DNA from: a virus
Length of the DNA: 64,000 bases
Strand: one strand, 5' to 3'
IMG/VR virus record: IMGVR_UViG_3300025849_000016
Span: 42,705-106,704 of that record
Shown here: positions 54,205-60,025 of the stretch, piece by piece
Position numbering within the stretch: the first letter of the stretch is position 1
Layout: each line of letters starts with the position of its first letter
Program-made: the position numbers and the translations under genes
Notes under the pieces: generated by a model
What the model saw: only the letters and a program-made list of their open reading frames with translations
What the model was told of the DNA's origin: nothing
Databases searched by the model: none

Positions 54205-54585
54205 TTAGCTAAATGCGTCTACTGCTGCGCCTGAATCAGCTGCACCAGGATGTACGCCTGCTGCCCAACGAACTTTACCAACATCTGTTGTTCCGCCTTC
54301 ATACTGAATTTTTCTACCGTATAAACGTGTAACTTGTACTGTTGTTGAATCATCTAAAACAGCATCAATTCGCATTTCACCAGCAACTAATGCAGCATTA
54401 GCTTTGTTAACTAATGTTAATACTTCTGTTGTTGAGCCATTTGTAACTGTAAATTTATTTGATGATCTTTGGTTTACAATCCATGCATCAGTTGTTGCTT
54501 CTGAGCCACCTGTAAAAAAGTGACGAGTCACTTTAATTGATCCTGCATCGTTGCCAAAATATTTCTTATTTAGTGGTCTTCCCAT
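54205..54585 (-). CDS. Hypothetical protein (126 aa, MGRPLNKKYFG...)
   Basis: Start moved from GTG 54669 to ATG 54585, which has an AAAGGAG SD; the upstream 84 nt form a structured leader. Confidence 0.8.
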   Translation of the reverse strand: MGRPLNKKYFGNDAGSIKVTRHFFTGGSEATTDAWIVNQRSSNKFTVTNGSTTEVLTLVNKANAALVAGEMRIDAVLDDSTTVQVTRLYGRKIQYEGGTTDVGKVRWAAGVHPGAADSGAAVDAFS

Positions 54586-54670
54586 TTGTTTCTCCTTTAA
54601 AAACGTTCTAGGTTTACGCAGTAGGTCAATTCTGCATAAGTCCGTATCATACGGCACGATTATCGACACT
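54586..54670 (-). promoter_or_regulatory. Pseudoknotted three-way-junction 5' leader
   Basis: Hairpins CCGUA-UGA-UACGG and UUAUGCAG/CUGCGUAA; loop AUUGAC can pair with 5' GUCGAU; begins right after TAAATAC (54673-54678). Confidence 0.5.
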
Positions 54671-54678: not shown

Positions 54679-54687
54679 TCAAATAAG

Positions 54688-54720
54688 AAAAAAGCCTTAA
54701 CAAATAAATGCTAAGGCTTT
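54688..54720 (-). terminator. Rho-independent terminator closing the ncRNA unit
   Basis: AAAGCCUUAGCA-loop-UGUUAAGGCUUUUUU. Confidence 0.75.
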
Positions 54721-54931
54721 AAATAAAAGTGATAGGTTGGACTCTGAGAATACCAACAACCTCCTAGTAGCTCTCGCATAATTCGGAGGAGCCTAGTATC
54801 GGATAGTTACTTCCAAAAACATATCTTTGTATCTCTACACTCATATGTTGCTACTACAGCTACTAGCCAAGTTGTGTCACTACGCAACACCGTTCCTTGC
54901 ACTATCTAATCTAAACCGTCGTTTAGCTTAT
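54688..54931 (-). ncRNA. ~240-nt structured ncRNA, manA-motif-like
   Basis: Has its own sigma70 promoter and terminator. Closing helix GAUAG/CUAUC, several internal stems and pseudoknot complementarities. The 3' element UGUUGGUAU...UCCAACC resembles my recollection of the manA RNA 3' end. Confidence 0.6.
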
Positions 54932-54937
54932 GTATTA

Positions 54938-54966
54938 AATATAACAAACTATTAAGCAGAAGTCAA
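54938..54966 (-). promoter_or_regulatory. Host sigma70-type promoter (TTGACT-17 bp-TATATT, extended -10 TGn)
   Basis: -35 at 54961-54966, -10 at 54938-54943, A/T-tract UP-like element upstream. Confidence 0.75.
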
Positions 54967-55050
54967 CCTCTTTTTTAATAAAAAGTTAATTTTTTTTATG
55001 TGGTGCTGTTTAATGATTCGTTGAAAGCACCAAAGCGTGTAATTATCCAT
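54952..55050 (-). CDS. 32-aa basic peptide MDNYTLWCFQRIIKQHHIKKINFLLKKRLTSA downstream of the glutamine riboswitch
   Basis: Strong GAGGAG SD 6 nt before the ATG; below the ORF-track size cutoff. Confidence 0.55.
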   Translation of the reverse strand: MDNYTLWCFQRIIKQHHIKKINFLLKKRLTSA

Positions 55051-60017: not shown

Positions 60018-60025
60018 TATTTATA
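60018..60025 (-). promoter_or_regulatory. Perfect T4 late promoter TATAAATA overlapping the portal stop codon
   Basis: Exact T4 sigma-late consensus, 4 nt upstream of ATG 60013. Confidence 0.65.

Follow-up and report, generated by a model that had tools for sequence, protein, structure and literature searches.

A divergent manA RNA behind the head genes of uncultured giant phages, probably a free-standing and self-associating RNA

The gap behind the major head protein gene of an uncultured giant phage holds what is, by full-length homology, a divergent and so far uncatalogued branch of the manA RNA family, and we consider it probable that this RNA is free-standing, self-associating and made early in infection. 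Listed as a 'riboswitch candidate' in 2010, manA has remained an orphan; RNA-only cages were obtained from it in vitro in 2026, with its biological context still lacking. The locus described here, together with 57 homologues, provides such a context: a strong host-type promoter of its own precedes the RNA, a terminator or an attached tRNA gene usually follows, and the homologues keep complementary exactly those loops that join the solved manA multimers. These observations shift the odds away from a switch on a neighbouring gene and toward a free RNA particle, and they add giant phages of other hosts to the cyanophages as carriers of manA.

The window, i.e. the whole stretch of 64,000 nucleotides that was analysed, forms the end of a 106.7-kb IMG/VR virus contig, the completeness of which was put at 31%. 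Genes for a T4-type head protease, a scaffold-like protein and the major head protein follow one another on its minus strand (Table 1). The head protein is ~70% identical to its closest matches, those of Rak2-like and other jumbo phages (GAP32, CBB, Vibrio 2.275.O), and related contigs of 176-210 kb have their completeness rated at 49-60%. Judged by this kinship and these ratings, the contig is therefore that of an uncultured giant T4-like phage with a genome estimated at ~350 kb, and not that of a cyanomyovirus. The head gene is separated from the next gene, which encodes 126 amino acids, by 597 nt that contain, in 5' to 3' order, the head-gene terminator, a glutamine riboswitch with a 32-codon ORF, a sigma70-type promoter, the structured RNA, a 12-bp terminator, the motif GATAAATAC and a freshwater-2-type leader.

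Table 1. Positions of the head genes, of the structured RNA and of the elements around it, numbered along the window
Feature	Position	Strand	Remarks
T4-type head protease gene	58094-57471	minus	
Scaffold-like protein gene	57456-56362	minus	
Major head protein gene	56349-55183	minus	PHROG 138, E 6e-102
Glutamine riboswitch (RF01739)	55121-55075	minus	42.3 bits, cut-off 35
32-codon ORF behind the glutamine riboswitch	55050-54952	minus	preceded by a ribosome-binding site
Sigma70-type promoter, whole	54938..54976	minus	conserved in homologues
A6 tract of the promoter	54976-54971	minus	
-35 element TTGACT	54966-54961	minus	17-nt spacer to the -10 element
Extended -10 element	TG 54946-54945, TATATT 54943-54938	minus	
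manA-class structured RNA	54718..54932	minus	nine helices; from the Rfam RF01745 match, model R1 and covariation
RNA core	P1 (54926-54911) to the 3' strand of closing stem P2 (54735-54731)	minus	
L3 segment GUAGU	54883-54879	minus	pairs with GCUAC of L8
L5 UAGU and L7 ACUA	54856-54853 and 54807-54804	minus	possible third loop-loop contact
L6 GNRA loop GAGA	54835-54832	minus	
L8 segment GAGAGCUAC	54767..54775	minus	GAGAG (54775-54771) to L9; GCUAC (54771-54767) to L3
L9 segment UUCUC	54750-54746	minus	pairs with GAGAG of L8
Intrinsic terminator	54681..54720	minus	12-bp stem 54720-54691, T-rich tail
Late-promoter-like motif GATAAATAC	54680-54672	minus	heads the next gene; downstream boundary of the RNA gene
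Freshwater-2-type leader (RF02980)	54583..54656	minus	includes the ribosome-binding site and ATG of the 126-aa gene
126-aa gene	54585-54205	minus	

The surroundings of the RNA are variable. In close relatives (L002-L081) the distance from the capsid gene to the homologue of the 126-aa gene ranges from ~160 to ~1380 nt, and the cassettes found there (glutamine riboswitch with its peptide, manA, tRNA-Gly, small ORFs) are interchangeable; the gap behind the capsid gene is a hot spot for accessory RNA modules. The glutamine riboswitch and peptide module recurs in about nine of 80 related loci, and over 58 nt the riboswitch and the start of its ORF are 87% identical to DNA adjoining the tmRNA gene in Methylophilales phage Melnitz. 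A blastn search of the intergenic region against 50,697 phage records returned only this riboswitch part, in four records of that same phage, and at blastn sensitivity this manA clade is found in no cultured phage. Neither the 126-aa and 322-aa downstream proteins nor the 32-aa peptide had a Pfam match; PHROG likewise gave no match for the 126-aa and 32-aa products and only weak ones for the 322-aa protein.

That the RNA resembles manA had been suggested by the sequence-only reading from the order of its elements, and the resemblance holds at the level of a divergent subgroup. The Rfam manA model (RF01745) matches the window copy at 54917-54726, across model positions 1-192 (E 6e-7 in a 901-nt search), though at 34.1 bits against a gathering cut-off of 55.2, and the match is absent from a whole-window scan at the gathering threshold. 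Those homologues behind the capsid gene that were scanned with Rfam score 29.7-55.7 bits, always over the full length, among them L021, the one above the cut-off, L067 (53.2 bits) and L136 (50.4 bits); the undisputed manA RNAs of the Prochlorococcus phages P-SSM4 and P-SSM2 reach 184.1 and 181.6 bits. In the reverse direction we used R1, a covariance model built from 11 capsid-downstream sequences of this clade only, which scores the window copy at 224.4 bits. It recovers the manA of P-SSM4 at 46.0 bits (E 2e-15) and that of P-SSM2 at 27.9 bits (E 3e-9), both at full length and with the same coordinates as Rfam's. Because the Rfam match is full length, homologues bridge the gap in score and R1 finds both undisputed members, the window RNA is, on homology, a divergent branch of manA. 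No second copy was found with R1 in the 106.7-kb contig, nor was one found in three relatives of 176-210 kb.

Eighty loci were fetched whose head protein is 82-98% identical to that of the window, and 26 of them have the structured RNA behind the head gene; viral contigs scanned with a clade-specific 14-mer and then with R1 gave 57 distinct sequences. We call the 5' hairpin P1 and the closing stem P2. A covariation check on homologues, of the kind that the sequence-only reading had proposed, came out in favour of the fold. In the 57-sequence alignment, which was fitted to R1 and on which the pairing figures rest, standard pairs occupy 95.6% of the cells, as against 31-41% when the partners are slid by 1-3 columns; changes on both sides, i.e. 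compensatory ones, occur at 45 of the 52 pairs, and none of 500 shuffles reaches any of five covariation measures. All 11 helix segments have 87-100% of their cells paired. A plain MAFFT alignment (A1) led to the same structure, with compensatory changes at 32 of 52 pairs. The manA consensus architecture, comprising the 5' hairpin, the closing stem, P3, a three-hairpin subdomain, P8 and P9, is thus reproduced with covariation, and so is each of the nine pairings read from the letters (P1, P2, P3, P3b, P4, P6 with its GAGA loop, P7, P8 and P9); a 3-bp P5 (GCU/AGC) is an additional helix missing from that list. The L6 loop is of the GNRA type in nearly all homologues. Folded as a single sequence, the segment has an energy of -70.9 kcal/mol (z = -3.2), and the terminator forms a hairpin apart from the rest. 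The segment is also free of ORFs led by a Shine-Dalgarno sequence, as had been claimed: only two short ORFs, both lacking a ribosome-binding site, lie in it.

The tertiary contacts turned out differently from the first proposal. A 9-bp pseudoknot between UUGCGUAGU and AUUAUGCGA had been put forward, but this duplex is present in the window copy only and is broken in its closest relatives; we rejected it as unconserved. The pairing that is conserved joins the same two loops, L3 and L8, in a different register, the 3' half of the P3 loop pairing with the nucleotides that immediately precede P8's 3' strand. Its register is constant, its complementary pairs are of at least ten sequence types that are position-consistent across homologues (GUAGU/GCUAC, ACAGA/UCUGU, GUAAG/CUUAC, GCAG/CUGC, GCAAC/GUUGC, CCCA/UGGG and more), and none of 500 partner permutations reaches the observed mean. 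In a second contact, the P9 loop pairs with central positions of the P8 loop (UUCUC/GAGAG, AUCCU/AGGAU, UCAUU/AAUGA, UCUCG/CGAGA, UUCUG/CAGAA, AUCAG/CUGAU); over 43 distinct combinations the mean duplex is 4.67, compared with 3.96 +/- 0.12 after permutation, and 0 of 1000 permutations reach it. The third, between L5 and L7, appears to covary in part, UAGU/ACUA being replaced by GGU(A)/(U)ACC in other homologues, with about seven copies mismatched. A coarse test, which takes the longest duplex between whole loops, gave z = 3.1 for L3-L8 and z = 2.0 for L8-L9; it is too blunt for the purpose, and the position-anchored tests are decisive for these two contacts.

In the manA family a contact marked 'pseudoknot?' links the P3 loop with the 3' side of P8, and the L3-L8 pairing is probably Weinberg's 'pseudoknot?': in our homologues L3 pairs 3-5 nt before the P8 3' strand, and an analogous GGCA/UGCC pairing can be made out by eye in P-SSM2 and P-SSM4. 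All three loop pairs are complementary in the window copy and L6 is GAGA, which is what self-assembly through these loops calls for. It seems likely that L3-L8, L8-L9 and L5-L7 pair between molecules, by analogy with the solved manA multimers, with the covariation fitting intra- and intermolecular pairing alike.

The bracket of promoter and terminator that had been seen around the RNA was found, too. The promoter, TTGACT-17-TATATT with an extended -10 element and an UP tract, is the only match to the strict extended -10 pattern in the 64-kb window; the pattern occurs five times in the 106.7-kb contig, and one other occurrence heads a protein gene on the opposite strand. Sixty-five distinct copies have enough upstream sequence for comparison. 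In 61 of them the best -35/-10 pair reaches 10 or more of 12, in 55 the -10 element has TG in front of it, and in 56 promoter and RNA are separated by one and the same distance. The spacers vary widely, and so does what lies further upstream: a head-gene terminator, the 32-codon ORF or the end of another ORF. With hexamers 16-18 nt apart, an extended -10, an A-tract and a fixed position, the element has the features of a T4-type early promoter used by the host polymerase, and transcription would start near A54931.

This arrangement had been regarded as special, a view that has to be tempered, since canonical manA copies share much of it. Directly in front of the manA RNAs of P-SSM2 and P-SSM4 stand perfect TTGACA-N16/17-TATAAT promoters that overlap the ends of regA and pstS, and among distinct canonical copies in viral contigs (L211, P-SSM2 142750-143050; L210, P-SSM4 164780-165015; L212-L331) promoters scoring at least 10 of 12 stand at a fixed distance in 92 of 95. 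The sigma70 promoter, as predicted in these copies, is therefore a trait of the whole family. The downstream part varies: 94 canonical copies have enough sequence beyond the RNA, and 25 of these, about a quarter, have an immediate terminator, in seven a tRNA (Asn or Asp) lies no more than 45 nt away, and another 57 are free of both over 150 nt and mostly run into ORFs. In many canonical copies a conserved long hairpin with a T-run (AGACC...GGTCT) follows. The closed-off form is, on these counts, the dominant one in the present clade.

In that clade an intrinsic terminator begins within ~35 nt of the RNA in 35-36 of 52 homologues and later in four more. The stems are long and perfect, 9-14 bp, and mutually unrelated in sequence, so that what is conserved, by this comparison, is the function of the terminator rather than its sequence. 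In the window it forms an independent hairpin of 12 pairs with a T-run, 10 nt past the closing stem P2; in the homologues, too, it lies ~10 nt past the constant 3' end of the RNA, and no conserved alternative pairing was seen. Since the stems are unrelated and the 3' part of the RNA is constant, a shared anti-terminator pairing is ruled out. Three distinct relatives have the order RNA, ~5 nt, tRNA-Gly(UCC), terminator, late motif and freshwater-2 leader, i.e. a unit from promoter to terminator that holds stable RNAs only.

The next gene has signals of its own. All nine occurrences of GATAAATAC in the 106.7 kb are on the gene strand; most of them precede a ribosome-binding site and ATG by 10-30 nt, and in 38 of 52 homologues the motif is found past the terminator. 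The T4-type late promoter is TATAAATA, and GATAAATAC has the look expected of one; from this placement, the 126-aa gene probably has its own start. In the form (G)ATAAATAC the motif occurs 9-11 times on the structural-gene strand (in the window at 60024, 54679, 52263, 29405, 23150 and 3301) and not at all on the other, again mostly 10-30 nt before a ribosome-binding site, and it appears to be the T4-like late promoter consensus for this phage group. The freshwater-2 leader begins just past GATAAATAC and ends at the ATG. A separate reading of the same DNA had taken this leader for a new class, wrongly, as RF02980 matches it (45.8 bits here, against a cut-off of 49.9, and 62-77 bits in relatives). 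In relatives (L010:4202-4284, L031:4200-4284) freshwater-2 likewise heads, as a 5' leader, the gene that follows the capsid gene. A full-text literature search found no paper on the motif, and the main text of the 2017 paper does not mention it; freshwater-2, an Rfam motif of unknown setting, can now be placed in what would be late mRNAs of giant phages.

The RNA moreover behaves as a cassette, gained or lost with its neighbour unchanged: of 45 relatives with sufficient sequence, 18 have it, and where it is absent the gap from head gene to next gene is ~160-220 nt. Because promoter and terminator are kept, and the next gene has a late-type promoter and a leader of its own, the data support the window copy as a stand-alone RNA gene rather than a 5' UTR. 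The sequence-only reading had argued for an independent transcription unit on the promoter and terminator of a single copy, and the conserved promoters, the terminators and the tRNA-Gly units now speak for it across the homologues.

A second context exists in relatives, at another locus away from the capsid gene, where manA is followed by other RNA-like modules, a late-type motif, a 65-aa ORF and Hsp20 (L090:4207-4847, L112:1797-2231, L129, L188). There is no immediate terminator in these four, nor before purL-hsp20 in P-SSM2 (143484-143942), the order of which is echoed by that in the relatives; a link of manA to ibpA was noted in 2010 (PMC2864571). Between manA and the terminator, some relatives have an element of ~100 nt that is closed by a long stem (~18 bp) around a conserved interior (L148:3510-3615, minus strand; L090:3912-4010; L188:10134-10230) and may be another co-transcribed structured RNA. 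Different extra modules stand behind manA in L052/L136, L166/L126 and L129/L112, and an Rfam scan of the extra modules gave no match at E <= 0.01. Elsewhere in L090 (12888-13275) lies a permuted, two-piece tmRNA of the alphaproteobacterial type (RF04321, 118 bits; RF01849, 98 bits), which hints at an alphaproteobacterial host for that phage.

The main alternative is that the RNA is a riboswitch or attenuator leader, which binds a ligand or factor and uses the terminator as an expression platform gating early read-through into the 126-aa and fibre genes. manA is classed as a cis-regulatory riboswitch candidate both in Rfam and by Weinberg et al. (2010; PMC2864571), the order of promoter, structured RNA, terminator and gene on one strand is the classic layout, and other manA copies lie directly upstream of genes, including hsp20. 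A cis-regulatory role would also suit the 57 canonical copies that lack a nearby terminator. Yet a 5' leader with a competing expression platform is not what the locus offers, as a terminator, a late promoter and another leader intervene between the RNA and the gene. The unrelated strong terminators at a fixed place behind the RNA, the tRNA gene that precedes the terminator in three relatives and the late promoter of the downstream gene disfavour an attenuator, and so does the coming and going of the RNA beside an unchanged neighbour; we regard a riboswitch leader as unlikely.

One could instead imagine that the RNA modifies RNA polymerase in cis, as HK022 put RNA does, making it resistant to terminators and allowing early expression of downstream genes in the late region. 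The constant position just past a strong promoter and before terminators would suit this idea, and it is an idea only; however, no resemblance to a known anti-termination RNA was found, the segment having no Rfam match other than manA, the units with a tRNA end at a terminator like ordinary stable-RNA operons, and the covarying loop-loop contacts fit the solved multimers. We therefore consider a polymerase modifier very improbable. That promoter-like and terminator-like sequences bracket non-functional or decaying DNA by chance deserves practically no credence: promoter-like sites are indeed no commoner around the locus than expected (6 in the surrounding 3 kb, compared with a shuffle mean of 7.4), but 57 distinct homologues with compensatory changes and with conserved promoter and terminator function refute it.

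The free-standing, self-associating RNA is thus the reading that we prefer, and it would work as follows. The host RNA polymerase with its primary sigma factor would start at the strong promoter near 54931 and stop at the intrinsic terminator near 54690, yielding a self-contained manA-class RNA of ~240 nt as transcribed, with a core of ~200 nt. Given a host-type promoter and a terminator, the RNA would probably be made from the start of infection and form part of no mRNA. It would fold into nine helices around a conserved core, and the three loop pairs (L3-L8, L8-L9, L5-L7) and the GNRA loop, all kept across homologues, would let it associate with itself. According to a preprint of July 2026 (10.64898/2026.07.01.735769), refolding of five manA RNAs in vitro gave pentamer-based decamers, octamers or a 60-mer cage, in which kissing loops between molecules (L5-L7', L8-L9' or L3-L8') and a contact between the L6 GNRA loop and its receptor join the subunits. 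That study was carried out in vitro only and still terms manA a putative cis-regulatory element. Because the loop pairs kept here are the joining contacts of those multimers, a particle that acts in trans, with no switch on the next gene, appears most likely.

We can speculate further that the RNA is made early and in bulk and assembles in the cell, through the three loop pairs, into closed pentamer-based particles that act in trans, perhaps as a container or a sponge for a host factor; as a specific proposal this is possible but doubtful. If true, the phage would make a compartment free of protein, and the links to tRNA and hsp20 and the position beside the capsid gene would point to a role in the takeover of translation or protein folding, or in head assembly. 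The place next to the head genes may, however, be nothing other than a permissive insertion site. For work on assembly and function, the locus and its homologues provide defined constructs, from promoter to terminator, together with natural loop variants.

Compared with manA as catalogued in RF01745, the window RNA shares the nine-helix architecture over model positions 1-192, a 5' hairpin with a GACG-type loop, a closing stem followed by AGUG, the GNRA loop on P6, a UAAC-type L7 and a near-identical P9 (UUGUUGGUA...UCCAACC). Both have a consensus sigma70 promoter at an equal distance and, sometimes, tRNA genes or hsp20 downstream. They differ in P8, which is here a 5-bp stem with an open loop of 20-25 nt pairing with L3 and L9, in contrast to the extended P8 helix of P-SSM2 and P-SSM4; in the carriers, which are giant phages with a capsid protein ~70% identical to that of Rak2-like jumbo phages rather than cyanomyoviruses; and in the share of copies directly followed by a terminator, 67% in this clade as against 27% of canonical copies. 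The published description has the family as 5' UTR elements, in contrast to the stand-alone RNA gene that we propose for the window copy. In the manA multimers solved by cryo-EM (10.64898/2026.07.01.735769) the joining loops are those that covary here, plus the GNRA loop L6, and we take our helix names to be those of the preprint, matched on the position of the GNRA loop, L6, and on the partners of the paired loops. The multimers were formed by other manA sequences, refolded at 10 mM Mg2+, and for the window RNA multimerisation is a prediction.

Other phage RNAs offer looser parallels. GOLLD and ROOL RNAs are often phage-borne and lie near tRNA genes. They are likewise non-coding, and they are reported to form RNA-only homo-oligomers with no biological role assigned (Nature 2025; PMC12286853). 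At several hundred nucleotides, with folds unrelated to manA, they differ from the present RNA, and neither was detected here. The pRNA of phi29 is a small phage RNA with its own early promoter, which forms a ring through intermolecular loop-loop pairs that covary between phages, binds the portal and drives DNA packaging. Its fold is unrelated to that of the window manA, and the likeness lies in the combination of a small phage RNA, an early promoter and covarying loops.
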